A stretch of DNA of 64,000 nt from Chloroflexota bacterium (GTDB taxonomy: Bacteria; Chloroflexota; Dehalococcoidia; Lucifugimonadales; UBA2985). The first letter of the stretch is position 1. Each line of letters begins with the position of its first letter. The stretch lies in assembly GCA_027622595.1 (NCBI GenBank), contig JAQBZZ010000002.1, forward strand, positions 31,663 to 95,662, in the 5' to 3' direction. Under the pieces are notes generated by a model. It was not told the DNA's origin, searched no databases, and saw only the letters and a program-made list of their open reading frames with translations. Of the stretch, positions 792-31,952 are shown one piece after another. The position numbers were made by a program, and so were the translations under genes.

Positions 792-793
792 AC

Positions 794-9325: not shown

Positions 9326-9459
9326 GCTGCACCTCCCTCTTGTGCGACACGAATTCTCCCCAGGCGTTATTGTAATGTAGTAGTCAGCGGCTCACCAGGT
9401 TCTGCTCAGATTATGTTGATGCAGGTTTCGGCAGGTATTCCATAGCAGTCCCCTAACCC

Positions 9460-10251
9460 CTAACTCAGAAAAGAATTTATAAGGGCAGAAATCTCCTTCA
9501 GCCTGGTGCGGACGAAGAGGTGACCCGTCCCCTCCAGTGTGACCAACCTGGAGTCCTTGATGCCTCGTATCAGCTCCCGCGCAAAACGCGTCGGTGTCAT
9601 TACGTCATCCTCCCCGAAGATAAGCAGTGTTGGGCAAGAGATATTGTGCAGACGGTCCCGGGAGTTGAAGGAAATGGTGGCCTCCATCTGTCGCTCGTAT
9701 GCCTCAGGCTTCTGGAACAGGGAGTCCTCCACTACATCTTTCACTATCTGCTCTATGAAGCCGGGTATCTGGTACTCCTTATAGGTGTATGCCCAGGGGA
9801 GGGTGAGACGAATGTACTCTTCCCTGGGCAACTCTCTTCTTAGAGAGGCAAAACCTCTGAACAGAGCGGCTCCCCGGGGGTCGGCGGCATCGTATGTGGC
9901 AAGAAGAACCAGACGGTCAACCAGTTGAGGAAAGCTGATGGCGAGTTCCTGGGCTATCGCACCTCCCATGGAGTAGCCTACCACATGAGCGCGGGCGATG
10001 CCCAGCTCCTTCAGCAAGCCAGCGGCATCCTCCGTCATGTCTCGTATCTCATATGGGCCAGCGGCACGCTGACTCAGGCCACTATCGCGGTTATCGAAGG
10101 AGACCACCCGATAGCCGCTCAGCATGGAAGCGAGGGGCCCCCATCCGCGGTGGTCACCGCTCAGACCGCTGATGAGCAACACAGGAGGGGCATCGGACTC
10201 CCCATCGATTTCATAATAGAGGCTCAGGCCGTTGACTGTTCCGTAGGGCAT
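9460..10251 (-). CDS. alpha/beta hydrolase
   Basis: 263 aa with PPVLLISGLSGD and the nucleophile elbow VGYSMGG. Confidence 0.8.
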   Translation of the reverse strand: MPYGTVNGLSLYYEIDGESDAPPVLLISGLSGDHRGWGPLASMLSGYRVVSFDNRDSGLSQRAAGPYEIRDMTEDAAGLLKELGIARAHVVGYSMGGAIAQELAISFPQLVDRLVLLATYDAADPRGAALFRGFASLRRELPREEYIRLTLPWAYTYKEYQIPGFIEQIVKDVVEDSLFQKPEAYERQMEATISFNSRDRLHNISCPTLLIFGEDDVMTPTRFARELIRGIKDSRLVTLEGTGHLFVRTRLKEISALINSFLS

Positions 10252-10333
10252 TTTGGTTTCCGTCCTGTAGTCCTGAAATTCATCGCCGCCACCGATGGTT
10301 CGACAGGCTCATCCTGAACGTATTTTTGAAAAC

Positions 10334-11158
10334 TCACTGACGCCAGGCTAGCCCTTCGGTGGCCTCCAGGAACCGGGCGTGGAGGCCGCTTCTTGAGGCG
10401 ATGATGCTCTCAGATTTCAGAGAGGCAGGGGTCTTATACTTATCGGTGATCACCCCTCCCGCCTCAGGCACCAAAACGAGGCCGGCAGCCACATCCCAGG
10501 GGGCCAGGTTGTGGTGAAAGTACATATCTGTCCTTCCACACGCGGCATAGGCCAGGCCAAGGCCAGCAGAGCCCATGATCCTGGTGCCCTGGAGGTTGGG
10601 CCACAGGTGCAGCAACAATTCGATGGCCGTGGAGGCCTTCTCATCCACGTACCCCAGGTCATAACTCAGAAGAGCATCGTCCAACTCGGGCTTGTCTGAA
10701 ACGCTTATCGGTTTACCATTCAGGAAGGCACCACCACCCTTTACGGCCTGAAACATCTCCCCGCGCACGGGATCGTAGGTCAGACCCATTAACACATCAT
10801 CCCCTTTTGCAAGGGCGATTATCACACAGAAGAACGGTATCTCCTGAACATAGTTCCGGGTGCCGTCCAGTGGGTCCACTATCCAGGTGTATCCGGAGTT
10901 GGAAGGAACCGATTCCGACTCCTCAGCCAGGAAGCCATCGTCGGGGAACTCTCTGTGCAACTCCTCAATGATCCGACGCTCCACCAGTTTGTCCACGTCG
11001 CTGACCAGATTGGCCCTGCCCTTATATGAGACCTGCTTCTCGCTGTGAAGCCTGTCCATCAACGTCTGTCCCGCCTCCTCCGCCACCCTGAGCGCCACCT
11101 CCAAGCCAGGGAGACCGAAGCGAGAAATAGGCAGGATAGCTGGGGTTTCGTTGTTCAA
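10334..11158 (-). CDS. inositol monophosphatase family protein
   Basis: 274 aa with WIVDPLDGTRNY and WDVAAG motifs. Confidence 0.85.
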   Translation of the reverse strand: MNNETPAILPISRFGLPGLEVALRVAEEAGQTLMDRLHSEKQVSYKGRANLVSDVDKLVERRIIEELHREFPDDGFLAEESESVPSNSGYTWIVDPLDGTRNYVQEIPFFCVIIALAKGDDVLMGLTYDPVRGEMFQAVKGGGAFLNGKPISVSDKPELDDALLSYDLGYVDEKASTAIELLLHLWPNLQGTRIMGSAGLGLAYAACGRTDMYFHHNLAPWDVAAGLVLVPEAGGVITDKYKTPASLKSESIIASRSGLHARFLEATEGLAWRQ

Positions 11159-12168
11159 AGCGTAACTTCCGAGATGCCCATCTTGTCCCGAACCTCAGAC
11201 AGAGTCTCCCTGGCGATGGCACGAGCGCGGCGCGCCCCTTCCTGGAGCACCTCTTCCACATAGCCGGATTTTTCTACAAACTCCCTGCGTCGTTCCCGGA
11301 AAGGCTCCAGGGTTTTGTTTATACCATCCGCCAGCAACTGCTTATCGTCCACGCATCCCAGCTGAGCGGATGTGCACTGCTGGTATACCTCGTCCAGTTT
11401 GTCTGGGTTGAAGAGCTTGTGGAGAGCGTACACATTACAGATTGAGGGACGCCCTGGGTCGGTTCGGCGTAGGCGTTGGGGGTCGGTGAAGGCCGTCTTG
11501 ACCCTGGCGCTGGTCTCCTCCGGGGTGGCAGCAAGCTCGATGTGGTTGTCCAAGCTCTTGCTCATCTTCTGCTTGCCATCAAGGCCCAGAATCAGAGGGT
11601 ACTCCGTCAGCCTGGGTTGAGGTTCAGGAAAGGTATGCCCATAGAGGTGGTTGAACCGCCTGACTATCTCCCTGGCCAACTCCAAATGGGGCAGCTGGTC
11701 CTCTCCCACAGGCACGGTGTCTGCCTTGTAGAGGATGATGTCGGCGGTCATGAGGACAGGATAGCCAACCAGTCCGTAGCTGACACTCTCCTCAGTTTCC
11801 TGCAACTGACGTACCTTGTCCTTGAAGGTCGGCACCCTCATCAGCCACCCAAGCGGTGTTACCATGCTAAGGAGCGTATGGAGGACCATCACCTCGGGCA
11901 CCTGGGACTGGACAAAGACAAGGCTCCTCTCCGGGTCAACGCCAGCCGCAAGCCAGTCCAGGACCATTTCCCGAATGTTGGGCTGAATCTCCCTGGTGGC
12001 CTCACCCTGCATGTCCGTGAGGGCGTGAACGTCCACGGCACAGTAGATGCAGCGGAACTCATCCTGGAGGGCCACCCAGTTTTGCAGGGCTCCTATGTAG
12101 TTGCCCAGGTGCAGCCGCCCGGAGGGGCGCATACCTGAGAAAACGCTGTGCTTAACCGTATCCATCAC
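11155..12168 (-). CDS. trpS: tryptophan--tRNA ligase
   Basis: 337 aa with SGRLHLGNY (HIGH-type) and KMSKS. The probable start is the ATG at 12165, preceded by GAGG. Confidence 0.92.
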   Translation of the reverse strand: MMDTVKHSVFSGMRPSGRLHLGNYIGALQNWVALQDEFRCIYCAVDVHALTDMQGEATREIQPNIREMVLDWLAAGVDPERSLVFVQSQVPEVMVLHTLLSMVTPLGWLMRVPTFKDKVRQLQETEESVSYGLVGYPVLMTADIILYKADTVPVGEDQLPHLELAREIVRRFNHLYGHTFPEPQPRLTEYPLILGLDGKQKMSKSLDNHIELAATPEETSARVKTAFTDPQRLRRTDPGRPSICNVYALHKLFNPDKLDEVYQQCTSAQLGCVDDKQLLADGINKTLEPFRERRREFVEKSGYVEEVLQEGARRARAIARETLSEVRDKMGISEVTL

Positions 12169-14487: not shown

Positions 14488-14507
14488 ACAGTAACCACAC
14501 ATGTTAA

Positions 14508-14562
14508 TAAGAGGGTCTGGTTTTCAGGAATTTCCTGAAAACCAGACCCTCTTATCTTTTTA
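14508..14562. terminator. bidirectional terminator hairpin between convergent gyrB and the trpB2-like gene
   Basis: TAAGAGGGTCTGGTTTTCAGGAA / TTCCTGAAAACCAGACCCTCTTA form perfect 23-nt arms (14508-14530 and 14532-14554), followed by TCTTTTT. Confidence 0.75.
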
Positions 14563-18725: not shown

Positions 18726-20963
18726 ATGGACATCTTAGATAAACTCAACGAGCGACAACAGGATGCCGTGAAGGCTGTGAACGGGCCACTGCTCATCCTG
18801 GCAGGCCCGGGAAGCGGCAAGACGCGGGTCATCACCAACCGGATAGCCTATCTGGTCAGGGAGTGCGGCGTCAGTCCGCGCAATATAGTGGCCGTTACGT
18901 TCACGAACAAGGCCGCCAGGGAGATGCGGGAGCGGCTCTTCGGCAAGAGCGCGGATGACCCCGATGCTCCCCTGCTTGCAAGCTGGTGGAATGCGCAACA
19001 GGAGTTCACCGTAGCTACCTTCCACGCCTTCTGCGCGTCGATCCTACGCAGGGAGGGATCGCATATCGGCCTTGACAAGGCCTTCGTTATCTACGACCAA
19101 GAGGACCAGCTTGCGCTTCTCACGCGAGCCATGGAAGCAGCGGAGATAGACCCCAAACGCTTCTCCCCAAGGTCAATCCTGTCTGCCATATCCGCGGCCA
19201 AGAGTCAGCTCATCGATCCGGAGACCTTTGCCACCGGGCGCTCCAGCCCACTGGAAGTGATCATACACAGGGCATACCGACAGTACGAGGAACTGCTGCA
19301 ACGGAACAAAGCGGTGGACTTCGATGACCTGTTGGTTAAGACCTACACTCTTTTCAGGGACAATGGCCCTGTGCTGGAGAGGTACCAGTCGCGCTACGAG
19401 CACATCCTCATCGACGAGTTCCAGGACACCAACATAGCGCAGTATGCCATCGCCCGTCAGCTGGCTGGAAAGCATCACAACATCTGCGTGGTGGGCGATC
19501 CTGACCAGTCCATTTACTCCTGGCGCAACGCGGACATACGCAACATCCTTTCATTTCAGAGAAACTACCCGGAGGCCCAGGTGGTCACGCTGGAGGAGAA
19601 CTACCGCTCCACGGAGACCATACTGGAGGCCGCCCACGCGGTGATATCCGCCAACCGCAAGAGAATGGATAAACCCCTGTTGACCCACAACCAGCGCGGC
19701 AGCCCCGTGTTCGTTGGCGAGGCCTTCAACCCGGACGAGGAAGCCCAGCAGGTGCTGCGAGAGATAGAACGGCTGAAGCGTGAGGACGGACGCAGCCTTG
19801 GCGAGTGCGCCGTGATGTACCGCGTGAACGCCCAGTCCCGCGCCCTGGAGGAAGGATGCCTCCGATACGGCATCGCCTACAAGCTGATAGGAGGGCTGCG
19901 GTTCTACCAGCGCAAGGAAGTGAAAGACGTAATAGCCTATCTGCGGGTCATCCATAACCCCTACGACGAGGTCAGCCTCGCACGGGTGATTAACGTACCC
20001 ACCAGAGGCATAGGCCAACGGACGGTTGAGCAACTAACGCAGATGGCCAGTGACGGCGGTATCCCCATCTACTCTGCAATGCAGCTGGCAACAGAGAAGG
20101 TAGGGGCAGTTCATGAACTGCCCCTACAAAGCGGCCCTTCGCTGGATACCCGCTCTTCCCAGGCGGTGGCAAGGTTCCTACATCTCATCAACGCACTCAT
20201 AGAAGAGGGTGAGAATCTTGGGGTGGCGGAGCTGATAGACGCCGTCGTGGAGCGCACGGGGTACAGGAGCTACCTCACGGAGGACGGCGAGCAGGGTCAT
20301 GAGCGGTGGGAGAACGTGCAGGAACTACGCTCGACTGCGCTGAAGTTCCAGGACGTTGACCCGGAGGACAGGCTCACCGAGTTCCTGCAGGGGGTTGCCC
20401 TGGTCTCCGACATCGACAGCCTGGATGAAGGCCAGGACTCCATTAATCTGATCACCCTCCACCAGGCAAAGGGGTTGGAGTTTCCGGTGGTGTTTATTGC
20501 CGGTCTTGAAGAGGGGCTTCTGCCACATATACGCTCTTTCGACGACCCCGACCAGATGGAGGAGGAGAGGCGACTGTTCTACGTTGGCATGACCAGGGCC
20601 AAAGACAGACTGTACCTTACCAGGGCCTTTCGACGGGGTTTCAAGGGCAACGGCAGCGCCAACATGCCATCCCGTTTCCTGAACGACATCCCGAAGCACC
20701 TGGTATCTCCCATGACCCAGGCAAACAAACGGGTCTCTGCCGTTGGTCAACCCCTTCGCGGAAGGGTCAGCCTGGCTGCCGAGGAGAAGACAAGCTCACC
20801 TCTGAAGGCGGGAGAGAAGGTACGCCACCCCAAATTCGGCGATGGGATTGTGGTGAGCTGCATCGCCTCAGGTCAGGACCACGAGGTAACGGTGGCATTC
20901 AAGGGCGAATCCGGGATCAAGAGGCTTCTCCTTGCCTACGCAGGCCTGGAAGTGGTGGAGTAG
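18726..20963 (+). CDS. pcrA: ATP-dependent DNA helicase PcrA/UvrD
   Basis: 745 aa with AGPGSGKT, DEFQDTN and VGDPDQSIYSWRNA. Confidence 0.92.
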   Translation: MDILDKLNERQQDAVKAVNGPLLILAGPGSGKTRVITNRIAYLVRECGVSPRNIVAVTFTNKAAREMRERLFGKSADDPDAPLLASWWNAQQEFTVATFHAFCASILRREGSHIGLDKAFVIYDQEDQLALLTRAMEAAEIDPKRFSPRSILSAISAAKSQLIDPETFATGRSSPLEVIIHRAYRQYEELLQRNKAVDFDDLLVKTYTLFRDNGPVLERYQSRYEHILIDEFQDTNIAQYAIARQLAGKHHNICVVGDPDQSIYSWRNADIRNILSFQRNYPEAQVVTLEENYRSTETILEAAHAVISANRKRMDKPLLTHNQRGSPVFVGEAFNPDEEAQQVLREIERLKREDGRSLGECAVMYRVNAQSRALEEGCLRYGIAYKLIGGLRFYQRKEVKDVIAYLRVIHNPYDEVSLARVINVPTRGIGQRTVEQLTQMASDGGIPIYSAMQLATEKVGAVHELPLQSGPSLDTRSSQAVARFLHLINALIEEGENLGVAELIDAVVERTGYRSYLTEDGEQGHERWENVQELRSTALKFQDVDPEDRLTEFLQGVALVSDIDSLDEGQDSINLITLHQAKGLEFPVVFIAGLEEGLLPHIRSFDDPDQMEEERRLFYVGMTRAKDRLYLTRAFRRGFKGNGSANMPSRFLNDIPKHLVSPMTQANKRVSAVGQPLRGRVSLAAEEKTSSPLKAGEKVRHPKFGDGIVVSCIASGQDHEVTVAFKGESGIKRLLLAYAGLEVVE
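20100..20127. repeat. perfect 28-bp palindrome inside pcrA (REP-like element)
   Basis: GTAGGGGCAGTTCA|TGAACTGCCCCTAC, translated in frame as VGAVHELPL. It is related to the intergenic palindrome at 26914..26943. Confidence 0.85.
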
Positions 20964-20967
20964 CGCC

Positions 20968-21954
20968 CTACAGTATTGCTCCCAGGATTTTGGCCAGTAT
21001 CCAGCCCAGGATGGCACAGAAGGGGTAGGTCACCAGCCACGCCCAGAGGATGCCCCGGGTGACTCCCCAGCGCACCGCCGAAAGTCGCCGTGTTGCCCCC
21101 ACTCCCATGATTGCCGAACTGGTGGTGTGAGTGGTGCTCACAGGTAGCCCAATGGTGGACGCCGCTTCGATAACGGCTGCGGCGCAAGCATTGGCTGCGA
21201 AGCCGCTGGAAGGCTGAAGCTTGGTCACGCGCATTCCCAGCGTGCGGATGACCTTCCATCCTCCAAAGGCTGTGCCGAATCCTATCATAAGGGCGCTGAC
21301 TATCTGCATCCAAAGGTCAACTGAGACATCTTGAGAGTAGTACACTCCCACGGCCAGGGCCATGATACCCATGGCGTTCTGGGCATCGTTCTTGCCGTGA
21401 CTATAGGCCAGGAAAGCCGCTGAAAGTATCTGCAGTTTCCCGAAGAGCGCGGTCACCTGATGAGGTGTCCAGCGTCGAAAGACCCGGTAGATGATGATCA
21501 TGAAGATAAAGGCAGCTCCAAACCCCAGAAGCGGGGAAAGGGCAAGGGCCAGAAGCACCTTGTAGACCGTGGCGGTCTTAACTGCCTCAAACCCTGCATG
21601 CGCCACTCCTGCGCCAAGCACCCCGGCCACCAGAGAGTGGCTCACGCTTACGGGAAACCCAAAGCGTGTGGCTACAACTACCCAGACCACTGCCGACATG
21701 ATGGCCGCCATCACAGCGGTCTGAGACATGAGGTCCGGGTCCACAATCCCCTTGCCGATGGTCTTGGCGACGGAGGTCCCTGTAAGGGCGCCAAGCATGT
21801 TCATGCTTCCGCCCATTATCACCGCCGCCAGGGGGGTCATGACACGGGTGGAGACTACAGTGGCAATGGAATTGGCGGCATCGTTTATGCCGTTGCCGTA
21901 GGCATAGGCTAGAGCCAGGGCTATTGTGATTATGAGGATGGCTTGTTCAGGCAT
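20968..21954 (-). CDS. pit: inorganic phosphate transporter, PiT family
   Basis: 328 aa with the duplicated GNGINDAANSIAT / HGKNDAQNAMG motifs. Confidence 0.88.
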   Translation of the reverse strand: MPEQAILIITIALALAYAYGNGINDAANSIATVVSTRVMTPLAAVIMGGSMNMLGALTGTSVAKTIGKGIVDPDLMSQTAVMAAIMSAVVWVVVATRFGFPVSVSHSLVAGVLGAGVAHAGFEAVKTATVYKVLLALALSPLLGFGAAFIFMIIIYRVFRRWTPHQVTALFGKLQILSAAFLAYSHGKNDAQNAMGIMALAVGVYYSQDVSVDLWMQIVSALMIGFGTAFGGWKVIRTLGMRVTKLQPSSGFAANACAAAVIEAASTIGLPVSTTHTTSSAIMGVGATRRLSAVRWGVTRGILWAWLVTYPFCAILGWILAKILGAIL

Positions 21955-22576
21955 GCTTCAACACAATGCCTTCCAGCATGTTGGCCGCATCCTCGCAGAA
22001 GTCCGTGGCCTGTTCAAGCAGGTTGTAGACTTCCTTCCACTTGAGTACGTAGATCGGGGAAACATCGCTGTTGAAAAGCCCCGCCATTGCCCTGCTGACC
22101 ACCTGGTCCGCCTCGTTCTCAAGGGTGTTGATATCTGTAGCCAGGGGGAGAATCGCCTCCAGCTTGGCCCCTCTGAAGTGCAACAGTCCGATAGCTTGCT
22201 CAATGGTTTCAGAGCAGCGCAGGAGGATGCGGGCAAGCTCCTTGGCTTCCTCCGTGGTATCCTCGATCCGATACTCCACCATGATGCGTGCAGCCTCTTC
22301 TATGCTGTCCACTATATCGTCCATACGCTCTCCCAGCGTGGCGATGTCCTCTCTGTCCAGGGGAGTGACGAAGGTCTTGTGGAGGCTGGTCATAATCGTG
22401 TGAATAATGGTGTCCCCCACCTCCTCCAGGCGTTTGATCTCGGCCACCTTTTCCGGGACGTTTTCGTAGTTCTCCATCAGGTCAAGCAGCTTCGTTGCCG
22501 TTGCCCTGAGGTTGGCCGCGCTCTGTTGAAAGAAGAAGAAGAATTTCTCTTCACGGGGCAGGAATGATAGCCTCAT
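21947..22576 (-). CDS. DUF47 (PhoU-like) phosphate-transport accessory protein
   Basis: 209 aa helical protein. It overlaps the PiT gene by 8 nt, the usual DUF47-PiT pairing. Confidence 0.8.
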   Translation of the reverse strand: MRLSFLPREEKFFFFFQQSAANLRATATKLLDLMENYENVPEKVAEIKRLEEVGDTIIHTIMTSLHKTFVTPLDREDIATLGERMDDIVDSIEEAARIMVEYRIEDTTEEAKELARILLRCSETIEQAIGLLHFRGAKLEAILPLATDINTLENEADQVVSRAMAGLFNSDVSPIYVLKWKEVYNLLEQATDFCEDAANMLEGIVLKHA

Positions 22577-22608
22577 TATATTCTCCGGTATTCCGTATTT
22601 GTGGCACT

Positions 22609-22639
22609 AAAAAAGCCATCTCATCGTGAGAGGGCTTTT
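22609..22639 (-). terminator. orphan terminator-like hairpin in the leader of the DUF47-pit operon
   Basis: AAAAAA-GCCATCTCA-TCG-TGAGAGGGC-TTTT is a 10-bp stem with one mismatch. On the minus strand it is followed by T6 and lies 33 nt upstream of the DUF47 start. Confidence 0.4.
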
Positions 22640-22893
22640 CAACCGATAGTTTTACCAGTGGAGTAGTGACCATAGTTGCCTGCAGGTGGGTATCCTTCAG
22701 CATTGATTATGCAAACCATAAACATCTGGAATCGGAATTTTCCCGATTCTCCCCCATTATGTAAGATTCGTGAAAATAGTAACGCTGTATAATCCAGGTT
22801 GTCAAGGCTCACCGACATCGTTTTTGCCTTCGTCCTTGTGGTTTGTCTTCGTGAGATTCTATAATACCTGCAGTTTGCTACGGAGATACATCC

Positions 22894-25365
22894 ATGTCCA
22901 TGAACACCCCTGAACAGAGATACAGTCCCCAGGAGCTAGACCGCAAGTGGCAGGAGCGTTGGGACAGCGACAAGCTGTACCAGGTGAGGGACGACGACCC
23001 TCGCCCCCAGTGGTATGAGCTTACCATGTTCCCCTACACTTCCGGGAACCTCCACATAGGTCACTGGTACACTATGGCACCCGCGGACGCCCATTCCCGC
23101 TTCCGCCGCATGCAGGGGTATAACGTCCTCCACCCGATGGGCTTTGATTCCTTTGGACTCCCTGCCGAGAACGCGGCCATCAAGCAGGGCATCCATCCTC
23201 ATAAGTGGACCATGGACAACATCGAGAACATGCGCCGCCAGCTCAAGTCCATGGGGTCGGTCTATGACTGGGACAGGGAGATAATCTGCGCCCTGCCCGA
23301 ATACTACCGTTGGACACAGTGGCTCTTCCTCCAGTTCTACAAGGCCGGGCTGGCCTACCGCGCCAAGGCCCCCGCCAACTGGTGCCCGACCTGCCAGACG
23401 GTGCTTGCCAACGAGCAGGTCGTCGATGGCAAGTGCGAGCGGTGCGACTCGCCTGTGTCTCGCCGCGACCTGGAGCAGTGGTTCTTCCGCATAACGAAGT
23501 ACGCCGACGAGCTTCTGGACTACTCCGGCCTCCTTGACTGGCCCGAGCGGATCAAGGCCATGCAGACCAACTGGATAGGCCGCAGCGTTGGCATTGAGAT
23601 AGGTTTCGACATATCCGGGTACGGGCTGGAGGAGAAGGAGATACGCACCTTCACCACCCGCATCGACACCATCTACGGCGTCACCTTCATGGTGCTGGCT
23701 CCTGAGCACCCACTTGTGGCGAAGCTGACCACCCCAGACCGCCGCGCCGAGGTCGAGGCGTACGTTGAGCAGGCCCGCCGCCAATCGGAGGTGGAGCGCT
23801 TATCCACCGAGCATGAGAAGACGGGGGTATTCATCGGCTCATACGCCACCAACCGCCTCAACGGCGACCGCGTGCCCCTCTACATCGCCGATTACGCCCT
23901 GCTGAGCTACGGCACGGGCATCGTCATGGGCGTGCCTGCCCACGACCAGCGCGACTTCGAGTTCGCGCAGAAGTACGACCTGCCAATACGAGTGGTCATC
24001 GCACCGTCCGGCTGGGACGGCGAGGAGTTGCAGGAGGCCCTCGTGAATGAGGGGACACAGGTCAACTCCGGCAGCTTCGACGGGCTGCCGTCGAGCCAGG
24101 GCAAGGAGCGTATCGCCGATCACGTCGAAGGACAGGGATGGGGACACCGCACCGTATCCTACAGGCTGCGGGACTGGCTCATATCCCGCCAGCGCTACTG
24201 GGGCACACCCATACCCATCGTTTACTGCGACCGTTGCGGCACCGTGCCCATCACAGAGGAGGAACTGCCCATTTTACTGCCTGAGGACGCACAGTTCAGG
24301 CCAACGGGTGAGTCGCCCCTGAAGTACCACAAGGGCTTCCTGAACACCACCTGCCCCAACTGCCACGGCGATGCCCAGCGTGAGACGGACACAATGGATA
24401 CCTTTGTGGACTCCTCCTGGTACCACCTGCGCTACACCAGCCCTTACTACCAAAACGGCCCCGTCGATCCCGAGGCCGCGAAGCAATGGCTACCCGTGAA
24501 CCAGTACACCGGCGGCGCAGAGCACGCCGTGATGCACCTGCTATACGCCCGCTTCTTCAACAAGGCACTGCGAGACCTTGGCGTGGTGAACTACGACGAG
24601 CCATACCTGCGCCTCTTCAACCAGGGAACCATCATTGCCGACCACCAGAAGATGAGCAAGTCGAGGGGCAACGTCGTCACTCCAGACCCCTATGTGAATG
24701 AACTGGGAGCCGATGTGGTACGCACCTATCTCATGTTTCTTGGCCCCTGGGACCAGGGCGGCGAGTGGTCCGACTCCGGCATCAACGGCATGGCCCGCTG
24801 GCTCAACCGCGTGTGGGATATTTCGCAAAGGGACGTGTCCGGGCTACGCAAGCAGCCGGACCACTCGCAAGAGACCGATCGCGGCTTGCGGCGTATGACT
24901 CACAAGACCATTCGCCGTGTGGAAGCCGACCTTGAGCGTTTCAAGTTCAACACAGCTCTGGCGGCCATGATGGAGCTGACCAACCACATGAGCAGGGCAT
25001 GGGACGAGGGCGGAGTCGCCGCCGACACCTGGCAGGACACCATCGAGAAGCTGTTGCTGCTCATTGCCCCGATTGCCCCCCACATCACGGAGGAGCTTTG
25101 GGAGCGGACAGGCCACGCCTACAGCATCCACAGCCAGCTGATGCCCAAGTGGGACGAGGAACTGGCCCGGGACGAGGAGGTGACACTGGTTGTGCAGGTC
25201 AACGGCCGAGTTCGTGACCGCATCCAGGTTGCCGCGGACATCGGCGAGGAGGAGGCGAAACGTCTGGCGATGGAGAGTCGCACGGTGCAGCCACACCTGG
25301 AGGGCAAGCAGGTGCGCCAGATTGTTTATGTCCCCGGCCGTCTCGTCAACGTTGTTGTGGGGTAG
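22894..25365 (+). CDS. leuS: leucine--tRNA ligase
   Basis: 823 aa with SGNLHIGHWY (HIGH) and KMSKS. Confidence 0.95.
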   Translation: MSMNTPEQRYSPQELDRKWQERWDSDKLYQVRDDDPRPQWYELTMFPYTSGNLHIGHWYTMAPADAHSRFRRMQGYNVLHPMGFDSFGLPAENAAIKQGIHPHKWTMDNIENMRRQLKSMGSVYDWDREIICALPEYYRWTQWLFLQFYKAGLAYRAKAPANWCPTCQTVLANEQVVDGKCERCDSPVSRRDLEQWFFRITKYADELLDYSGLLDWPERIKAMQTNWIGRSVGIEIGFDISGYGLEEKEIRTFTTRIDTIYGVTFMVLAPEHPLVAKLTTPDRRAEVEAYVEQARRQSEVERLSTEHEKTGVFIGSYATNRLNGDRVPLYIADYALLSYGTGIVMGVPAHDQRDFEFAQKYDLPIRVVIAPSGWDGEELQEALVNEGTQVNSGSFDGLPSSQGKERIADHVEGQGWGHRTVSYRLRDWLISRQRYWGTPIPIVYCDRCGTVPITEEELPILLPEDAQFRPTGESPLKYHKGFLNTTCPNCHGDAQRETDTMDTFVDSSWYHLRYTSPYYQNGPVDPEAAKQWLPVNQYTGGAEHAVMHLLYARFFNKALRDLGVVNYDEPYLRLFNQGTIIADHQKMSKSRGNVVTPDPYVNELGADVVRTYLMFLGPWDQGGEWSDSGINGMARWLNRVWDISQRDVSGLRKQPDHSQETDRGLRRMTHKTIRRVEADLERFKFNTALAAMMELTNHMSRAWDEGGVAADTWQDTIEKLLLLIAPIAPHITEELWERTGHAYSIHSQLMPKWDEELARDEEVTLVVQVNGRVRDRIQVAADIGEEEAKRLAMESRTVQPHLEGKQVRQIVYVPGRLVNVVVG

Positions 25366-25394
25366 GGGGTTGAAGAATTCCTTGGAGGATTGAA

Positions 25395-26189
25395 ATGTCT
25401 ACTCCTGAACTCGTTCTTGAGTACGTGAAAACCCTGGCTTGGCCTGTTGTAGTCTCTTTTGTACTCATCCTGTTCCATTCACAACTATCAGACCTCATCC
25501 AACGCGTGACAAGAATAAAATTGCCAGGTGGGGGAGAACTGGATGCCGAAATAAAGAACGTGACCGAGAAAGTAGGGGAGCAGGCTCCTGTATCCTCACC
25601 TAGTTACACACAGCAAGAATTTGGAGCCTCTATCCTTGAGCGAGTTGAACATGACCCCACACTTGCCTTAGCCGAACTACGTATGCAGTTAGAGCAAGTG
25701 CTCAGAGCCATGCATTCAGTGGGGGTTGACAGTTCTTCTCCCAAGAGGCCAACTAGCTTAACCACGCTAATTCGTGACCTCCAACATTCTGGCGATATGC
25801 CTGCTAAACTTGCGGAACCTCTTCGAGATGTCATTGCTATAGCTAACAGAGCTGTCCACGGCGAACGTGTGAGCCAAGATGCAGCAGAGGAATTAGTAAA
25901 CGTCGGGGTCAGATTGCTTGAAGAACTGAGGACGATTTATGGGGGAATGGTATCCAACCCTGTGGATTCTTTCGTGATATCAGATAGCGCCCGTGATGAC
26001 TTCATGAACAAAACTCGCTATACAGTGACTACGATTGTACCAGTTGTCAAAGAACCGTATATGAATATCCGTATCTTAGACCAGGATGGATTAGACGAGC
26101 TTCTTGATGGCTATGGTGAATACGCGGAATTCTTGGTAGCCATTGAACCTATCGATACTACTTTACCTAGGAAGGATACCAAAGAATAA
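25395..26189 (+). CDS. hypothetical protein: N-terminal membrane helix plus a DUF4145-like helical domain
   Basis: 264 aa. TM helix LAWPVVVSFVLILF. The central LALAELRMQLEQVLRAMH...LTTLIRDLQHSGDMPAKLAEPLRDVIAIANRAVHGERVSQDAAEELV resembles DUF4145. The sequence is visibly more AT-rich than leuS. Confidence 0.5.
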   Translation: MSTPELVLEYVKTLAWPVVVSFVLILFHSQLSDLIQRVTRIKLPGGGELDAEIKNVTEKVGEQAPVSSPSYTQQEFGASILERVEHDPTLALAELRMQLEQVLRAMHSVGVDSSSPKRPTSLTTLIRDLQHSGDMPAKLAEPLRDVIAIANRAVHGERVSQDAAEELVNVGVRLLEELRTIYGGMVSNPVDSFVISDSARDDFMNKTRYTVTTIVPVVKEPYMNIRILDQDGLDELLDGYGEYAEFLVAIEPIDTTLPRKDTKE

Positions 26190-26289
26190 CAGCAATTACC
26201 CCATCCGCTGTGACATCACTGTATTTGCTACAGGTTAGCACAGCTCACCCTGAATCTGTCACAAAGTAAGCCGACCAAGAAGTAAACAC

Positions 26290-26712
26290 ATGACCAACAA
26301 TTCACAAAAAATCCTCTTTGTGTGCGTCCACAACTCCGGACGCAGCCAGATGGCCGAGGCATTCTTCAACCACATTGCCCAGGGCAGGGCCGTCGCTTAC
26401 TCGGCCGGCACCTAACCAGGCGATCAGGTCAACCCAACCGTCGTCCTTGCGATGGCAGAACTTGGCATGGACCTTTCCACAAAACAGCCTGCACTACTCA
26501 CACAAGATATGCTGGACTCCGCCGAGCGGGTCATCACCATGGGGTGCAACGTGGAGGATGCGTGCCCCGCCAACATGGTGGTGACGGAGGACTGGGGCCT
26601 GGAAGACCCAAAAGACAAACCGATCGAGAAGGTCAGGGAGATTCGTATCGAAGTCAAACGCAGGGTGGAGGCGCTGATAGAGGAGATGGAGTTTTTTGTA
26701 AAGGCCCACTAA
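26290..26712 (+). pseudogene. arsC: LMW-PTP-type arsenate reductase with an in-frame TAA at codon 42
   Basis: From the ATG at 26290: [62 protein letters not shown]... The CX5R(S) P-loop is present. The TAA at 26413-26415 is in frame with ORF 26452..26712. Confidence 0.75.
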
Positions 26713-26768
26713 TGGGGTTCCACTCGCTGATGTGGTTCGACGGGCTCACCATGAGCGGGAGAAACACC

Positions 26769-26853
26769 TGTAATTCTGAATGAAATGAAGAATCTAAAGC
26801 CTGTTTCTTGCACTAACATACGCCTTAGATGCTTCGCTTCGCTCAGCATGACA
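26769..26853. repeat. inverted-terminus repeat element (TGTCAYNCTGAG family)
   Basis: TGTAATTCTGAATGAAATGAAGAATCTAAAG ... CTTAGATGCTTCGCTTCGCTCAGCATGACA. The arms are imperfect reverse complements. Confidence 0.7.
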
Positions 26854-26913
26854 TTCCCATTCTGCTCACCCTGAGCACGTCGAAGGAAGTGAGCGGGCGT
26901 TCTAAGGCATTCC

Positions 26914-26943
26914 CGTAGGGGCGATTCATGAATCGCCCCTACG
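26914..26943. repeat. perfect 30-bp palindrome (REP-like); possible terminator hairpin of the GT2 gene
   Basis: CGTAGGGGCGATTCA|TGAATCGCCCCTACG, 8 nt downstream of the minus-strand stop at 26951. Confidence 0.85.
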
Positions 26944-26950
26944 TTCCTCT

Positions 26951-27688
26951 CTAAACCTCGTTGGACTTCAGTGCCTTCGACAGCCCGCCCAGCCGCAGCC
27001 GCAGCAGCCCCTTCAGGTCGTCCGTGGCGGTCTTGACGACGTGGACACGACTGTCAGGGTCGTCCACCCACTCCACAGGCACGTCCTTGATGCGGAAGCC
27101 GCCCTTCTCAGCCAGTATCAGCAACTCGGAGTCGAAGAACCATCCCTGGTCCTGTATCTTGGGAACCAGAAACTGGGCCGCGTTACGACTGATGGCCTTG
27201 AACCCGCACTGGGCATCGGAGAAACGGGTGAAGAAGGTGGCCTTGATTATCAGGTTGTAGCACCGAGAGGTGACCTCCCTTTTCAAAGTACGTTTCTTCA
27301 CCACAGAACCCTTCATGAGTCGAGAGCCTGTCGCCAGATCGTAGCCCTCCTCCTCAATGGCGCGCACCAGCGGAGGGAAGGCGTCCAGTCCCGTGGAGAG
27401 GTCAACGTCCATGTAGGTGAGGATATCGGCGTCGCTCTCCAGCCACGTCTTACGCAGCGCCCTGCCTCTCCCCCTGATCTCCAGCCGCGTCCAACTCACC
27501 TCCGGGTATTTTTGAGAAAGGCTTTCGGCGATAGCAGGGGTCTGGTCGGTGGAGCCGTTGTCGGCGATGACGATACGAAACTGGTAGGGCGCATGGTCGC
27601 TCAGGAACTGATGGAGTGTGGCCACTGACTCCGGCAGGGCCTTCTCTTCGTTGAGGACGGGAATGACTACGTCTACGACTGGAGGCAT
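26951..27688 (-). CDS. family 2 glycosyltransferase (polyprenyl-phosphate sugar synthase-like)
   Basis: 245 aa with VIPVLNEE, ADNGSTD and YMDVDLS (DxD). Confidence 0.85.
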   Translation of the reverse strand: MPPVVDVVIPVLNEEKALPESVATLHQFLSDHAPYQFRIVIADNGSTDQTPAIAESLSQKYPEVSWTRLEIRGRGRALRKTWLESDADILTYMDVDLSTGLDAFPPLVRAIEEEGYDLATGSRLMKGSVVKKRTLKREVTSRCYNLIIKATFFTRFSDAQCGFKAISRNAAQFLVPKIQDQGWFFDSELLILAEKGGFRIKDVPVEWVDDPDSRVHVVKTATDDLKGLLRLRLGGLSKALKSNEV

Positions 27689-27696: not shown

Positions 27697-29217
27697 TTAG
27701 TGCCGGAAGTGCCGCACGTCAGTGAATACCATCGCCAAGCCTAGGCGATTAGCTGCCTCGATGACTTCCCCGTCTCTAATGGAACCGCCGGGATGCACCA
27801 CGGCGGTAACGCCGCCCTCCGCTCCGACCTCCAGACCATCGGCGAAGGGGAAGAAGGCATCCGAGGCCAGTACCGCGCCCTTGGAAGCCTGACCTGCGGC
27901 CTTGAGAGACAGTTGGACGCTTATAATCCGGTTGGGCTGCCCTGCCCCCATGCCCAATAACGTCTGGCCTTTGGCAATTACTATGGCGTTGGACTTAACG
28001 TGTTTGACGGCCCTCCAAGCGAAGGCCAGGTCAAGAAGCTCTTCTTTGGTGGGCTTGCGGTCCGTGACCACCTGCCAGCCCTGTGGGTCCTCTTCCAGGA
28101 TGTCCGGGGTCTGCATAAGCACACCACCAGCGACCTGACGCACCTCCCATCCCTTCTCACCCTGCGGCTGCGACTCACCGACGGCCAGAATACGCAGGTC
28201 TCGCTTTTTCATCAGAATATCCAGGGCGGCCTGCTCGAAAGCAGGCGCAACGACGATCTCATAAAAGACCTGGCGCATGGCTTCCGCAGCTTCCCCAGTC
28301 ACCGTACGATTGAAGGCCACGATGCCTCCATAGGCGGATACGGGGTCTCCGGAGAAGGCACGCCTGTATGCCTCAGCCTGGTCTTCGTGACAGGCCAGTC
28401 CGCAGGTGTTGGTGTGTTTTATGACTGCGACCGCGGGCTCCTTGAAGTCCGACACCGCTCGCCAGGCAGCATCGGCGTCCAGGATGTTGTTGAAGGACAG
28501 TTCTTTGCCGTGAAGCTGCTTTGCCCCGGCAATGCCAGCGGGAGACGGGTCGCCGTAGAAGGCTGCCTGCTGGTGAGGGTTCTCGCCATAGCGCAGGTCG
28601 TATAATTTTCTGTATCCCAGGGTCAGTTCCTGGCCAAGATCGCCGTCCTGGCCCCGCAGGTACTGGGCGACGATAGTATCGTAGAGGGCAACGTGCTGAA
28701 ACGCCTTTTGGGCCAGCCCACGCCTCTCTTCGATGGTGAGTCCGTCCTCAACCATGCGTTCGGCCACCCAGGGATAGTCGTCCGGGTCCACCACGACGAC
28801 GACGAATGGGAAGTTCTTAGCCGCCGCCCTGATCATGGTGGGGCCGCCTATGTCTATGTTCTCCAGGGCGTCGTCCAGAGTTACCCCGGGCCTGGCTATG
28901 GTGGCTGCAAAGGGATAGAGGTTCACCGCCACCAGGTCTATTGTGTCCATCTGAAGCGTCGCCAACTCGGACATGTGCTCCGGATTGTCCCGCCGCGCCA
29001 GTATCCCGCCGTGGATGATGGGGTGCAGGGTTTTCACACGGCCATCCAGAATCTCCGGAGAGCCGGTGATTTCTGAGACCTGCCGAACTGGCAAGCCTGC
29101 TTCGCTGAGGGTCTTGTGGGTGCCCCCTGTGCTGACCAGTTCTATGCCGGTCTTTTGCAGATCACGGGCGAACTCCACAACGCCCGTCTTATCGTATACG
29201 CTGATTAAGGCTTTCAT
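27697..29217 (-). CDS. purH: bifunctional AICAR formyltransferase / IMP cyclohydrolase
   Basis: 506 aa. [18 protein letters not shown]-terminus (MGS-like) and a C-terminal AICARFT domain ending ...[10 protein letters not shown]. Confidence 0.95.
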
Positions 29218-29244
29218 CGATTACCTCGATAAATAGTAATAATC

Positions 29245-29601
29245 CTAACGAATTCTCTCGATTCGTCTCAAAACGTGGTTCGCGAAACCTTCAGCCATCG
29301 TCCAATTATCATTCCAATTTGAGCGTAGGGGGTCTCTCACGTTTAGGTCATAGTCAGCAATGCCACGCAGCTCTTCCAGCTTATCAAGTTGGTTCCCAGC
29401 TGCACTGTCCGCTCGTTTTAATGCGCTAATCACCTTTCGATGTATACGATGCCGACCACCTACTCCTAAGCGTTCTCTGGCGCGCAAAAACGTGGCGTAG
29501 TAAGCTCTCCCCACTGCTGTACGTAAAGCTGCTTCTGAATTAAGGTGGTCTGTTGCCACTCTTTCAGCAATAGCTAGGAAATCTCGGGGATCAAGCGGCA
29601 T
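29245..29601 (-). CDS. HEPN domain protein (cassette ORF D)
   Basis: 118 aa. AVGRAYYATFLRARERL ... RIHRKVISAL ... LRGIADYDL matches the HEPN pattern S-R-A-Y-Y-A-x-F-h-a-A ... (S/I)H-R-G/K-V-I ... R-x-x-A-D-Y as I remember it. Confidence 0.6.
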   Translation of the reverse strand: MPLDPRDFLAIAERVATDHLNSEAALRTAVGRAYYATFLRARERLGVGGRHRIHRKVISALKRADSAAGNQLDKLEELRGIADYDLNVRDPLRSNWNDNWTMAEGFANHVLRRIERIR

Positions 29602-29605
29602 TTAG

Positions 29606-30214
29606 CTATTCCCATTCCACAAAGACAGCCATCTGCTCGTCTAACAATTGCTGAGGCCCTGCAGCCAATGTAGGTCTACATCTATCAATAGCACTGCCAA
29701 TAGCATCCCAAAATGCAAAGGCTTGGCCACTATTACCTTTAACATGCACCCTAAATACAATTTCAATCCAATCCTCTTCAAAGCTCCTCTTCAACCCAAC
29801 CACGACCCTTTGCACAGGCATCCAACACCTAGCCGATTCCACCTCTATAATGGCAAAAATCACCCTGGTCAGTCTCTCCATATCTCCGGTCAAATATGAG
29901 CGGGCTTCGCGAGCTATGGTGGGGCGTATTGGGCGTGTTGCAGGCGACTGAACATGTATGGGCACGGTATCAACATTAGAAGCTACCGGCGCCTGTAGTG
30001 AAGCGTCAATCTCAGAAGTCAAGGTCTGTAAGCTACCAAGCCCTTCCGCCACTTGCCTCTCTAAAACGTATTCCGATCTTAAATCGCGGGGAGTTTGGTT
30101 TGTAGCAGATAGAGGTTCTCCCCTCTCTTCAGGAGGCGTCTCCTTAGAAGGCCAAACCAAGTGTGAGTTGGTATTGACATCACCCTCAACTTGTAGCAGA
30201 GATCCCGTTGTCAC
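29606..30214 (-). CDS. hypothetical protein (cassette ORF C)
   Basis: 202 aa with a GTG start in a GTGA overlap with ORF B. The N-terminal half is S/T/P-rich and low-complexity. The C-terminal roughly 100 aa look globular (ERLTRVIFAIIEVESARCWMPVQRVVVGLKRSFEEDWIEIVFRVHVKG...). No family recognised. Confidence 0.5.
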   Translation of the reverse strand: MTTGSLLQVEGDVNTNSHLVWPSKETPPEERGEPLSATNQTPRDLRSEYVLERQVAEGLGSLQTLTSEIDASLQAPVASNVDTVPIHVQSPATRPIRPTIAREARSYLTGDMERLTRVIFAIIEVESARCWMPVQRVVVGLKRSFEEDWIEIVFRVHVKGNSGQAFAFWDAIGSAIDRCRPTLAAGPQQLLDEQMAVFVEWE

Positions 30215-30935: not shown

Positions 30936-31952
30936 TCATTCTAGCACAACAGGTTCATTGGCATCCCCTATGATCACCTCTCCCACAACACGGGCCTCGG
31001 GCACAAGGCGACGTACCTCGTCCGTCTTGTCCGGAGCGCACGCAAGCACCATGCCGATACCCATGTTGAACACGTCGAACATCTCATTCCTCTCCACCTG
31101 GCCTGCTTCCTGGATCAGGGTGAAGATTGGTGGAACCTCCCACGCAGAGGTATCGAACCGCGCACCCAGCCCCTTTGGCAGAATCCTTGGCACGTTTTCC
31201 GGCAACCCTCCACCGGTGATGTGGGACATACCCTTGATGAGGGGCAGCACAGGCACCAGCAAAGGATAGTAGCAGCGATGGGGCTCCAGAAGCGCCTCTC
31301 CCAGTGTCCTACCCAGAGTTGGATAGCTGCGACTCAGGATCGAGGGGTCCTCTTCAACTTTGAACACCCTTCGCGCTAGAGAATAGCCGTTGGTGTGCAG
31401 GCCATTTGAGGGTATCGCAAGCAGCACATCGCCCTGAACGATGGTGGAGCCATTTATGACGGCGTCCTTCTCTACTACGCCCACCGCGAACCCTGCCAGG
31501 TCGAACTCTTCCTCCGGATAGATGCCGGGCAACTGCGCCGTCTCCCCACCTATGAGAGAACAACCCACAGCCAGGCACGCATCGGCAACGCCCTTCACAA
31601 GGGCCTCAGCCCTTCCGGGGATCAGACGGCCAACACCTATATAGTCAAGGAAGAAAATGGGTTTTGCACCGCACGTGAAAACATCGTTGACGCAGTGGTT
31701 CACGACATCGATTCCAACTGTATCAAAGCGTCCGGTCAGGGTAGCGAGCTTCAGCTTGGTTCCAGGTGAGTCGGTGCTGGAAACCAGTACAGGCTGACGA
31801 TAGCCCTGCAACTGGTACATTCCGCCGAAGAAACCCACACCACCAAGCACCTCAGGCTGAAGGGTCTTGGATGCCAGGGCTTTTATGGCTTCCTTGGCCT
31901 TCCGAGCAGCCTCGTGGTCAACCCCCGCGGCAAGATAGGTCTCACCCGGCAT
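30936..31952 (-). CDS. purM: phosphoribosylformylglycinamidine cyclo-ligase
   Basis: 338 aa with YLAAGVDHEAARKAKEAI...LGGVGFFGGMY and STDSPGTKLK. Confidence 0.95.
   Translation of the reverse strand: MPGETYLAAGVDHEAARKAKEAIKALASKTLQPEVLGGVGFFGGMYQLQGYRQPVLVSSTDSPGTKLKLATLTGRFDTVGIDVVNHCVNDVFTCGAKPIFFLDYIGVGRLIPGRAEALVKGVADACLAVGCSLIGGETAQLPGIYPEEEFDLAGFAVGVVEKDAVINGSTIVQGDVLLAIPSNGLHTNGYSLARRVFKVEEDPSILSRSYPTLGRTLGEALLEPHRCYYPLLVPVLPLIKGMSHITGGGLPENVPRILPKGLGARFDTSAWEVPPIFTLIQEAGQVERNEMFDVFNMGIGMVLACAPDKTDEVRRLVPEARVVGEVIIGDANEPVVLE

Follow-up and report, generated by a model that had tools for sequence, protein, structure and literature searches.

Double-foot GTAG REPs have been described as the elements that belong to TnpA_REP subclass 2.4 (Quentin et al. 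2018, BMC Genomics 19:475; PMC6006769), a subclass that corresponds to RAYT group 4 of Bertels et al. 2017. In-frame REP copies were reported inside the subclass 2.4 tnpA_REP genes themselves, the Caldilinea aerophila entry in Table S1 of the same study is GTAGGGGCGAAAAATTTTTCGCCCCTAC, and its authors considered that the double foot could come from a doublet by central deletion (PMC6006769). For the flanking 16-mers of RAYT group 4, only ~14 per replicon have been reported. Intragenic REPs, many of them in replication and repair genes, have also been surveyed, and RPE-4 and RPE-6 were equated with CGTC REPs in that work (Di Nocera et al. 2013, BMC Genomics 14:522; PMC3733652).

We analyzed a 64-kb stretch of Chloroflexota DNA (64,000 nucleotides, here called the window), which contains two GTAG-footed hairpins and no others, one intragenic and one extragenic. 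By sequence, structure and covariation, both are members of the double-foot GTAG family. The reading that we prefer, and hold to be highly probable, is that both palindromes are double-foot GTAG REPs and that the first of them (copy 1) has settled in frame in a tolerant loop of pcrA. The element itself is already known, and in-frame REP events of this kind have already been described. A full-text literature search with the DNA strings and with VGAIHELPL returned nothing relevant, and the family was identified through the RAYT literature only. The features at the first site are as follows.

18726..20963, plus strand: pcrA/uvrD-family SF1 helicase gene, 745 aa, which hosts copy 1
20100..20127, no strand assigned: REP copy 1, a perfect 28-bp double-foot GTAG palindrome, in frame in pcrA
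20100..20129, plus strand: VGAVHELPLQ segment, 30 nt in place of 15 nt (GNETP/GNETL), a net gain of 5 codons

The sequence at 20100-20127 is exactly GTAGGGGCAGTTCATGAACTGCCCCTAC, the perfect palindrome (14+14) that an initial annotation of this DNA had reported. It is laid out as a 5' GTAG foot, a 12-bp stem with a CATG loop when folded as a hairpin, and a 3' CTAC foot. As RNA, the hairpin is predicted to fold at -22.2 kcal/mol (z = -4.5), as compared to z = -0.6 for the homologous stretch of a relative (L121). The initial annotation had also put the chance expectation of such a palindrome far below 1. Arithmetic gives 2e-4 for the window (~64000/4^14), and none of 100 dinucleotide shuffles contained GTAGGGGCAGTTCATGAACTGCCCCTAC at 3 or fewer mismatches or two matches to the clamp pattern given below, in agreement with that statement.

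The ORF that contains copy 1 matches PcrA of G. stearothermophilus (1pjr; E=1.6e-191) and carries the Pfam domains UvrD-helicase, UvrD_C and PcrA_UvrD_tudor. Within this ORF, as had been noted, the palindrome is read as VGAVHELPL, which corresponds to residues 459-467 of the 745-aa PcrA/UvrD protein. Of the three frames of this palindrome variant, just one is open, the others having TAG and TGA, and the open frame is the one in use, which agrees with the earlier proposal that a coding sequence was colonized with its frame unbroken. The insert position is in domain 2B, where helix 448-460 ends and loop 461-474 starts. In an AlphaFold2 model of PcrA with a mean pLDDT of 80, residues 462-468 have pLDDT <50, and the site of copy 1 is modeled as a flexible, low-confidence loop of domain 2B between two helices.

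The change in pcrA was defined by a protein alignment of 120 orthologs and a codon-level comparison with four relatives (L121, L126, L127 and L128). The nearest PcrA orthologs have GNETP or GNETL (15 nt) where the window has VGAVHELPLQ (30 nt), and relatives at 79-86% identity have GNETP at the site of the element. The event was a 30-for-15 nt replacement and not a clean insertion. Among the 120 orthologs aligned, the element in pcrA was confined to strains that are at least 98% identical: the peptide and the palindrome are common to the window and one ortholog (P0001, 98% identity) and are absent from the 119 others. No distant ortholog shares the peptide. To the initial annotation, the whole stretch ATEKVGAVHELPLQSGPSLDTRSS had looked like an insertion. 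A lineage-specific segment of ~10 residues is indeed present in a variable region, but only VGAVHELPLQ (30 nt) is specific.

The filled pcrA allele was found in five independent assemblies (the window and L122-L125), and there is next to no likelihood that the palindrome is an artefact of assembly or sequencing, such as a chimeric join or an adapter-like hairpin. Many matches to the family do lie in metagenome-assembled genomes, which would fit an artefact. However, four independent contigs, obtained from different samples and with different assemblers (ENA, Logan), carry the same in-frame allele as the window, the ORF is intact, and the family occurs in isolate genomes too and is known in the literature from complete genomes.

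The second palindrome lies 6.8 kb away, in a stretch that differs between strains.

26696..26961, no strand assigned: strain-specific stretch of ~265 nt that holds copy 2, from blastn and alignment
26914..26943, no strand assigned: REP copy 2, a perfect 30-bp palindrome, CGTAGGGGCGATTCATGAATCGCCCCTACG, made up of a 28-bp core (26915-26942) and a C/G pair

Relative to copy 1, the changes in copy 2 are confined to stem positions 9-10 (AG to GA) and their partners, positions 19-20 (CT to TC), and the pairing is kept, as the initial annotation had it. The copy 2 hairpin is predicted to fold at -23.7 to -25.1 kcal/mol; the two copies (28 and 30 bp) together range from -22 to -25 kcal/mol, with z from -4.5 to -5.4. 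Copy 2 is situated between convergent genes, 131 nt beyond a plus-strand LMWPc-like ORF (end 26783) and 8 nt past the stop codon of a minus-strand glycosyltransferase gene (26951..27688). In a strain that is 94% identical in DNA (L122), only ~41 nt are the counterpart of 26696..26961, and copy 2 is missing. The more distant L121 (85% identical in DNA) likewise lacks the stretch with copy 2 and has a different family member at another site. Copy 2 is part of a complex 265-nt indel and not a clean insertion of 28-30 nt. The ~265-nt stretch folds more stably than its shuffles (z = -4.1). It also contains one member of a second small repeat family.

Several other identities were considered for the two palindromes. 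An intrinsic (Rho-independent) terminator was rejected, as neither strand has a terminator-like site at copy 2 and copy 1 is inside an ORF. An Rfam RNA family was rejected as well, with no match at either palindrome (19500-27500, E of 1 or less). No promoter consensus was found at copy 2, and megablast of the copy-2 30-mer, with this variant as an exact word only, gave no match in plasmids and phages.

The clamp pattern GTAGGGGC-N4-CATG-N4-GCCCCTAC has matches in at least 120 genome loci, and the palindrome is therefore not unique to the two sites in the window; the pattern was also found in 49 IMG/VR contigs. The phyla among the matches listed include Cyanobacteria, Chloroflexota, Gemmatimonadota, Planctomycetota, Omnitrophota, Nitrospirota, Binatia, Patescibacteria and others. 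Among the same matches, every one of the four free stem pairs is Watson-Crick in 114/126 instances, and 22 distinct perfect variants are present. This recurrence of the clamp with compensatory stem changes, together with presence or absence at the level of strains, supports the initial view that both palindromes in the window are copies of one mobile or structured element. The flanks of the palindromes are not conserved, so that the unit is the palindrome itself, and the one preference seen at the target sites is weak and symmetric (Y at -1 and R at +1 in ~65%). The identical copy-1 28-mer was found at 2 genome loci among the matches listed and in 30 metagenome contigs with a GC of 0.33-0.69, none of the latter being from the organism of the window. 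As to density in the relatives, one copy is present in the 22 kb of L121 and none in the ~60 kb of L126-L128.

We give only a very small chance to an origin in place, by which intramolecular template switching (quasi-palindrome correction) during replication turned a partly self-complementary part of the pcrA loop into the perfect palindrome and its likeness to REPs is coincidental. A 30-for-15 nt replacement with no clean insertion would fit such an event. In addition, the right arm, CAT GAA CTG CCC, is somewhat similar to the ancestral GGN AAY GAR ACN CCN, which resembles part of that arm and the foot; this similarity leaves room for recombination or local templated synthesis. However, a local event would not recreate 24 fixed positions of the family, and the exact 28-mer is present in 32 unrelated contigs. 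The GTAG and CTAC feet and the GGGGC clamp belong to a family found in >200 places, a sister copy lies nearby in the window, and the alleles so far are all-or-none, with no intermediates.

The palindrome also occurs in frame at linkers or loops of other proteins (GltB, an FGE-sulfatase protein, SMC, a PolyA_pol-domain protein and NadB), and among the matches listed the copies in linkers of housekeeping proteins are always read as VGAxHxxPL or RGxxCxAPT peptides. In unrelated proteins, a VGAVHELPL-type peptide occurs only where the palindrome is present, which argues against the possibility that the hairpin or the peptide is functional in pcrA (through ribosome pausing, as an RNase shield or by modulation of the regulatory 2B domain) and is kept by selection. 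We regard such a function as highly improbable, even though strains ~6% divergent in DNA have the palindrome without a change, its RNA hairpin is stable (-22 kcal/mol) and the insert is located ~26 residues after the GIG-type motif RGIGQRT. From the role of this motif in UvrD structures, the insert is presumably near the DNA-facing part of 2B. At 6.4% DNA divergence, ~1.8 changes would be expected in 28 nt by arithmetic, and the zero observed is not significant (P ~0.16). The segment is also missing from all orthologs at 86% identity or less, and the loop is modeled with low confidence.

All-against-all clustering of the ORFs near palindromes yielded an IS200-like Y1 transposase as the top recurrent family, and this RAYT-like gene adjoins or surrounds the palindrome in 5/120 loci listed. 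The RAYT-like proteins score above the Pfam Y1_Tnp threshold; their best NCBIfam match is REP_Tyr_transpos (E 1e-16 to 1e-19), at 58-70 bits, which is below the curated NCBIfam cut-off of 80. Their motifs NH[VIF]H, WQ and YIxNNP/YIxDNP are those of subclass 2.4 (Quentin et al.; PMC6006769). At one locus (L074), palindromes are present on both sides of the transposase gene, and at two others (L042 and L047) the gene itself contains the palindrome, in frame and directly behind the HuH motif, L042 being a Dehalococcoidia example of the association between gene and palindrome. Peptides of the VGAIHELPL or VGAIHESPL type are found at that spot in ~70/120 transposase homologs. By tblastn, no RAYT-like gene was found in the 64-kb window or the relatives' 22-kb loci, and none in the 30 metagenome contigs that have the exact 28-mer or in the 49 viral contigs. 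Since the window has no RAYT gene, mobilization of its copies is an inference. To our knowledge, in vivo transposition of a REP by a RAYT has never been shown for any family.

It is unlikely that the transposase was irrelevant to the event in pcrA and that the palindrome came there from another genomic REP copy by homologous or microhomology-mediated recombination (gene conversion). The loss of 15 resident nt, the weak similarity of the replaced to the incoming sequence, the position of copy 2 within a complex 265-nt indel and the lack of a RAYT gene in the window are consistent with recombination. On the other hand, the homology available amounts to only a few bases, and RAYT-like genes are linked to the family as a whole. 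In addition, ~10/126 copies among the matches listed are exactly at the center of longer inverted repeats, which suggests insertion into ssDNA hairpin tips and not conversion between duplexes.

In double-foot GTAG REPs, which we take both palindromes to be, the GTAG foot, here with its mirror CTAC, is the recognition tetranucleotide of REP-associated Y1/HUH transposases of TnpA_REP subclass 2.4 (RAYT group 4). A RAYT in the host genome would have moved the element, and the exact mechanism by which a copy was placed in single-stranded pcrA DNA may have been cleavage and ligation of the RAYT type, or else an exchange with another copy by recombination or gene conversion. In this step, 15 nt coding for part of a variable surface loop of domain 2B would have become 30 nt. 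The change probably survived because it was a multiple of three, because the only open frame was the one used and because the loop is tolerant of a change in length. VGAVHELPLQ may now be a neutral or nearly neutral 10-residue loop, inherited by strains ~6% apart in DNA. Copy 2, at the usual location of REPs past the 3' ends of convergent genes, would be a more recent gain or loss.

A more speculative idea, and in our judgment a very unlikely one, is that the REP in pcrA is non-random. It might be a cis site that couples the Y1 transposase or hairpin-dependent processes to the supply of helicase or, more modestly, the 30-for-15 replacement might reflect templated, microhomology-guided spread of REPs and not cut-and-paste. 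The idea of coupling to the helicase comes from the unwinding that PcrA/UvrD/Rep perform for HUH nucleases and from the observation that intragenic REPs are overrepresented among replication and repair genes (Di Nocera et al. 2013).

With one filled and several empty alleles and a defined 30-for-15 nt junction, the pcrA site offers a clean, datable case of the entry of a REP into an essential-type gene, in an uncultured marine lineage of Chloroflexota. Such pairs of filled and empty sites are raw material for the question of how RAYTs move REPs. The GTAGGGGC...GCCCCTAC family is present in many more phyla than the surveys of 2017-2018 listed, Patescibacteria, Omnitrophota, Binatia and Gemmatimonadota included. 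For annotators, VGAxHxxPL and RGxxCxAPT peptides can be recognized as REP-derived and not as conserved motifs. The current understanding of REPs and of PcrA is left unchanged.

Rickettsia palindromic elements (RPE; Ogata et al. 2000) reportedly occur in frame in many protein genes, where they are tolerated at surface positions. Elements of the RPE-1 type have 100-150 bp and encode 30-50 residues, have neither a GTAG foot nor an association with RAYTs, and belong to a different host clade. Identity with this type was rejected, as the element here has 28 bp and encodes 10 residues and its host is a member of the Chloroflexota.

The REP/REPIN-RAYT systems of E. coli and Pseudomonas (Nunvar 2010; Bertels and Rainey 2011; Ton-Hoang 2012; Messing 2012) share the GTAG-footed hairpin with the window. 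Their REPs are recognized by a single-copy Y1/HUH transposase and are mostly located just 3' of genes, as is copy 2. However, they are single-footed, their stems are imperfect, and their copies, which number in the hundreds, are mostly inverted doublets (REPINs) and almost all extragenic, whereas the element in the window is a perfect, symmetric single palindrome of low density. A REPIN was rejected, since the copies in the window are each one symmetric palindrome and have no partner within 6.8 kb. An IS200/IS605 insertion sequence was rejected too, with no transposase ORF beside either copy (the neighbors are pcrA, the LMWPc-like ORF and the glycosyltransferase gene). The Nostoc punctiforme REP, gttgggtttcgttcctcaacccaac (Bertels and Rainey 2011), is of a different family.

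Compared with the intragenic GTAG and CGTC REPs of Di Nocera et al. 2013, copy 1 is similar in being a single in-frame REP; theirs encode 7-10 residues. The host genes in excess in that study were uvrA, uvrB, dnaE, recBCD, polA and those for UvrD/REP helicases. The UvrD/REP examples (R. palustris RPE_2137 and K. olearia Kole_1028) are of CGTC type and at other positions in the protein, and none is of the double-foot GTAGGGGC type or of the lineage of the window.

The closest system is that of the double-foot GTAG REPs. Unlike those described, the REPs in the window are hosted by a SAR202/Dehalococcoidia-like marine Chloroflexota, and the gene that copy 1 has entered is pcrA, not tnpA_REP; a cognate transposase gene, typically flanked by the REPs in a REPtron, was not found in the 64 kb; and the loop and stem variant of copy 1, AGTT-CATG-AACT, was not found among the double-foot REPs listed. 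In other respects the two agree. Both copies in the window have GTAG at the base of the stem and a 3' CTAC end that pairs with it, and the GGGGC clamp and the length of 28 bp are those of GTAGGGGCGAAAAATTTTTCGCCCCTAC in Caldilinea aerophila. Both systems consist of a short, stable stem-loop with sub-families that differ by complementary changes in the stem, and both combine a copy number that is low (here, two copies in the 64 kb) with a wide, patchy spread (Cyanobacteria, Chloroflexi/Caldilineae and other phyla). Finally, both include in-frame copies, and the VGAxHExPL of pcrA is the same peptide that is found inside the transposase genes.

The 64-kb window contained two GTAG-footed hairpins only, one of them within pcrA:

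18726..20963, plus strand: pcrA, 745 aa, with UvrD-helicase, UvrD_C and PcrA/UvrD tudor domains
20100-20127, within ORF 18726..20963 (plus strand): REP copy 1, a perfect 14+14 palindrome, GTAGGGGCAGTTCATGAACTGCCCCTAC
26914-26943: REP copy 2, the second copy of the palindrome, CGTAGGGGCGATTCATGAATCGCCCCTACG

The sequence, the ORF and its domains agree on the perfect 28-bp palindrome in pcrA that the initial annotation had described. Its chance expectation, said to be far below 1, was calculated to be ~2e-4 perfect 28-bp palindromes per 64 kb, and shuffled window sequence gave zero matches. The paired changes reported for copy 2 were also found: it differs from copy 1 solely at positions 9-10 of the stem and at the bases that pair with these, and because both stem partners are changed, the palindrome is kept.

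Over its full length, the 745-aa product aligned with PcrA of G. stearothermophilus (1pjr, E = 1.6e-191), UvrD1 of M. tuberculosis and UvrD of E. coli. Copy 1 is read in frame as VGAVHELPL, as previously proposed, at PcrA residues 459-467. Among the best 120 PcrA orthologs, this peptide was present only in P0001, a 98%-identical protein, and in none of the other 119. By the names that the nearest PcrA homologs carry, the host is a SAR202/Dehalococcoidia-type Chloroflexota. In the protein alignment, orthologs of 86-73% identity have [DE][RK]-GNE[TA][PL]-[GS][GS]PSLD at the position of EK-VGAVHELPLQ-SGPSLD in the window, and the segment length differs again in more distant orthologs of this set. 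Comparison of the DNA of five syntenic relatives with the window at pcrA revealed the identical palindrome in four independent contigs from the strain with the 98%-identical protein (94% DNA identity), and GGN AAY GAR RCN CYN in its place in the relatives L121 (85% DNA identity), L126, L127 and L128. Since these codons occupy 15 nt, the event exchanged 30 nt for 15 nt, a net gain of five codons. Thus, the segment is lineage-specific, but at the DNA level it is a replacement rather than a clean 28-bp insertion. The replaced AAC GAA ACG CCC weakly resembles the right arm, CAT GAA CTG CCC, a likeness that was judged non-significant and that would be compatible with a recombinational route.

In an AlphaFold2 model of PcrA (mean pLDDT 80), the segment forms the end of helix 448-460 and loop 461-474, with pLDDT < 50 across residues 462-468. 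By alignment with 1pjr, it marks the start of domain 2B, where length varies within the family. Hairpin and peptide may have a regulatory or structural role in pcrA, although nothing positive supported one: the palindrome is unchanged between strains that diverge by 6% in DNA, but this constancy is non-significant (P ~0.16).

One genome per species was scanned with the pattern GTAGGGGC-N4-CATG-N4-GCCCCTAC, which gave at least 120 genome loci with this clamp from very diverse phyla (Nostoc, Chamaesiphon, Pseudanabaena, Chloroflexia, Anaerolineae, Dehalococcoidia, Gemmatimonadota, Planctomycetota, Omnitrophota, Nitrospirota, Binatia, Acidobacteriota, Patescibacteria and others), so the palindrome is not unique to the two window sites. 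The shared clamp, the compensated stem changes and the double feet place both palindromes in one REP-like element family, as the initial annotation had held. Among the matches listed, all four unconstrained stem pairs were Watson-Crick in 114 of 126 instances, and there were 22 different perfect variants, with three or four base-pair types per free pair. Flanks are unrelated from locus to locus; therefore, the unit is the palindrome alone. Flank complementarity extends for 6-19 nt in 10 of the 126 instances listed (0.03 expected), and some palindromes are nested, with another family member or a longer inverted repeat centred exactly on them (L134:~1108-1173, L151:~1285-1350 and L133:~985-1045; also L034, L072, L079, L078 and L032). 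This suggests that the elements insert at the tips of hairpins or the centres of palindromes. The exact pcrA variant was found at two genome loci among the matches listed and in 30 contigs from metagenomes, whose GC ranged from 0.33 to 0.69; as four free pairs allow 256 perfect variants, identity across unrelated genomes is not by itself proof of horizontal transfer. The pattern also occurred in 49 viral-classed contigs (IMG/VR), none of which carried a RAYT-like gene; L183 (IMGVR_UViG_3300029959_001594) holds seven identical GTAGGGGCAATTCATGAATTGCCCCTAC copies within 14.8 kb (402-11716).

Clustering of the ORFs located <= 2.5 kb from a palindrome gave, as the most frequently recurring family among the matches listed, an IS200-like Y1/HUH protein (5 loci). 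It scored above the threshold of Pfam Y1_Tnp, matched the REP-associated tyrosine transposase best in NCBIfam, under the curated cut-off, and its motifs were NH[VIF]H, WQ and YIxNNP. At locus L074, a palindrome lies on either side of the transposase-like gene, 5-9 nt from the gene ends; at L042 and L047, an in-frame palindrome lies within the gene, directly after the HuH motif (...NHVHGIIVINCRGTACRAPTAERF and ...NHFHGINILNECVGAIHESPLRM). Among the 120 homologs listed, annotated by JGI as 'REP element-mobilizing transposase RayT', ~70 have VGAIHELPL or VGAIHESPL at this position. After the HuH motif, many RAYT-like homologs (P0163, P0183, P0198, P0200, P0213, P0217 and others) repeat parts of the REP-encoded peptide in tandem (HELPIHELPIHELP, VGAIPVGAIHESP), which suggests that half-palindromes were duplicated locally more than once within the transposase gene. 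No RAYT-like gene was found in the 64-kb window or in the relatives' loci.

Variants of TTCATGAA have TAG and TGA in the other two frames, which leaves VGAxHExPL as the sole reading in either orientation. About 8 of 158 instances lie well within long ORFs, and Pfam confirmed five in-frame host ORFs as real genes:

Glutamate synthase: copy in the linker from GATase_2 to the central domain
FGE-sulfatase protein: in-frame copy
SMC protein: in-frame copy
PolyA_pol-domain protein: in-frame copy
NadB: copy in the linker between the FAD and C-terminal domains, the same VGAVHELPL variant as in pcrA

The evidence fits best with the pcrA palindrome being a passenger REP that belongs to the double-foot GTAG family. 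A RAYT may have inserted it through single-strand cleavage and ligation, or it may derive from another copy by recombination. It would have been kept, presumably as a neutral change, because it uses the sole open frame, its length is divisible by three and the domain 2B loop that holds it is permissive. The comparisons establish its family membership, the covariation, the polymorphism between strains and the loop position; the part played by a RAYT in this genome, the route of insertion and neutrality are inferred.

Copy 2 is flanked by convergent genes, 8 nt beyond the stop codon of the glycosyltransferase gene and 131 nt beyond the end of an LMWPc-like ORF, and had no terminator consensus, promoter consensus or Rfam match. 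Here, the 94%-identical strain (L122) has ~41 nt vs ~265 nt in the window, and the palindrome is inside the extra DNA; it is absent from L121 also. At L121:8499-8527, there is a family member whose centre differs, GTAGGGGCGGGTTTCAAACCCGCCCCTAC; it is intergenic, with a 68-aa gene on one side and DUF1015 on the other, and no palindrome occupies the matching site of the window. These differences indicate that such elements turn over at both strain and species level.

Other features of the window were observed. The LMWPc-like ORF (26322-26783) encodes 153 aa, compared to 139 aa in L122; its 3' end enters the strain-specific stretch, so the indel alters the predicted C-terminus. The same stretch includes one member (26790-26855) of a second small repeat family, which has ~65 nt in common with 50590-50656; the core is TTAGAT[GT]CTTCGCTTCGCTCAG[CA]ATGACAT, preceded by GAATCTAA, and both copies are intergenic with convergent ORFs on either side. 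Synteny with L121 and L122 ends at ~17166, upstream of the DUF1015 gene, where those two have the 68-aa gene, ligA, pth and others and the window has different genes. A region of ~1.7 kb (29233-30974) between purH (27697..29217) and a purM-like gene (30936..31952) has lower GC and four small minus-strand ORFs (118, 202, 105 and 132 aa), is missing from L122 and could be a small accessory island. Directly after an ORF ending at 14487, an inverted repeat with two perfectly matching 24-nt arms and a 1-nt loop (14507-14555, ATAAGAGGGTCTGGTTTTCAGGAA / TTCCTGAAAACCAGACCCTCTTAT) has no relation to the GTAG family.

The RAYT-like proteins found here bear the same motifs as TnpA_Y1 subclass 2.4, which corresponds to Bertels' RAYT group 4, occurs in Cyanobacteria, Bacteroidetes and various other phyla, and has REPs that are canonical long or 'double foot', with 5' GT[AG]G and 3' C[TC]AC (Quentin et al. 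2018, PMC6006769). Table S1 of that study contains 105 GTAGGGGC strings, and a 28-bp Caldilinea aerophila GTAGGGGCGAAAAATTTTTCGCCCCTAC is flagged there as double foot. RAYT group 4 spans 17 classes and is common in Cyanobacteria, Chlorobia and Caldilineae, and its flanking 16-mers have only ~14 copies per replicon (Bertels et al. 2017), in agreement with the low palindrome density in the window. [quoted passage not shown] 2013, PMC3733652). These accounts already describe both the element family and its occurrence within genes, and the pcrA copy adds a new instance of that phenomenon, from this lineage.
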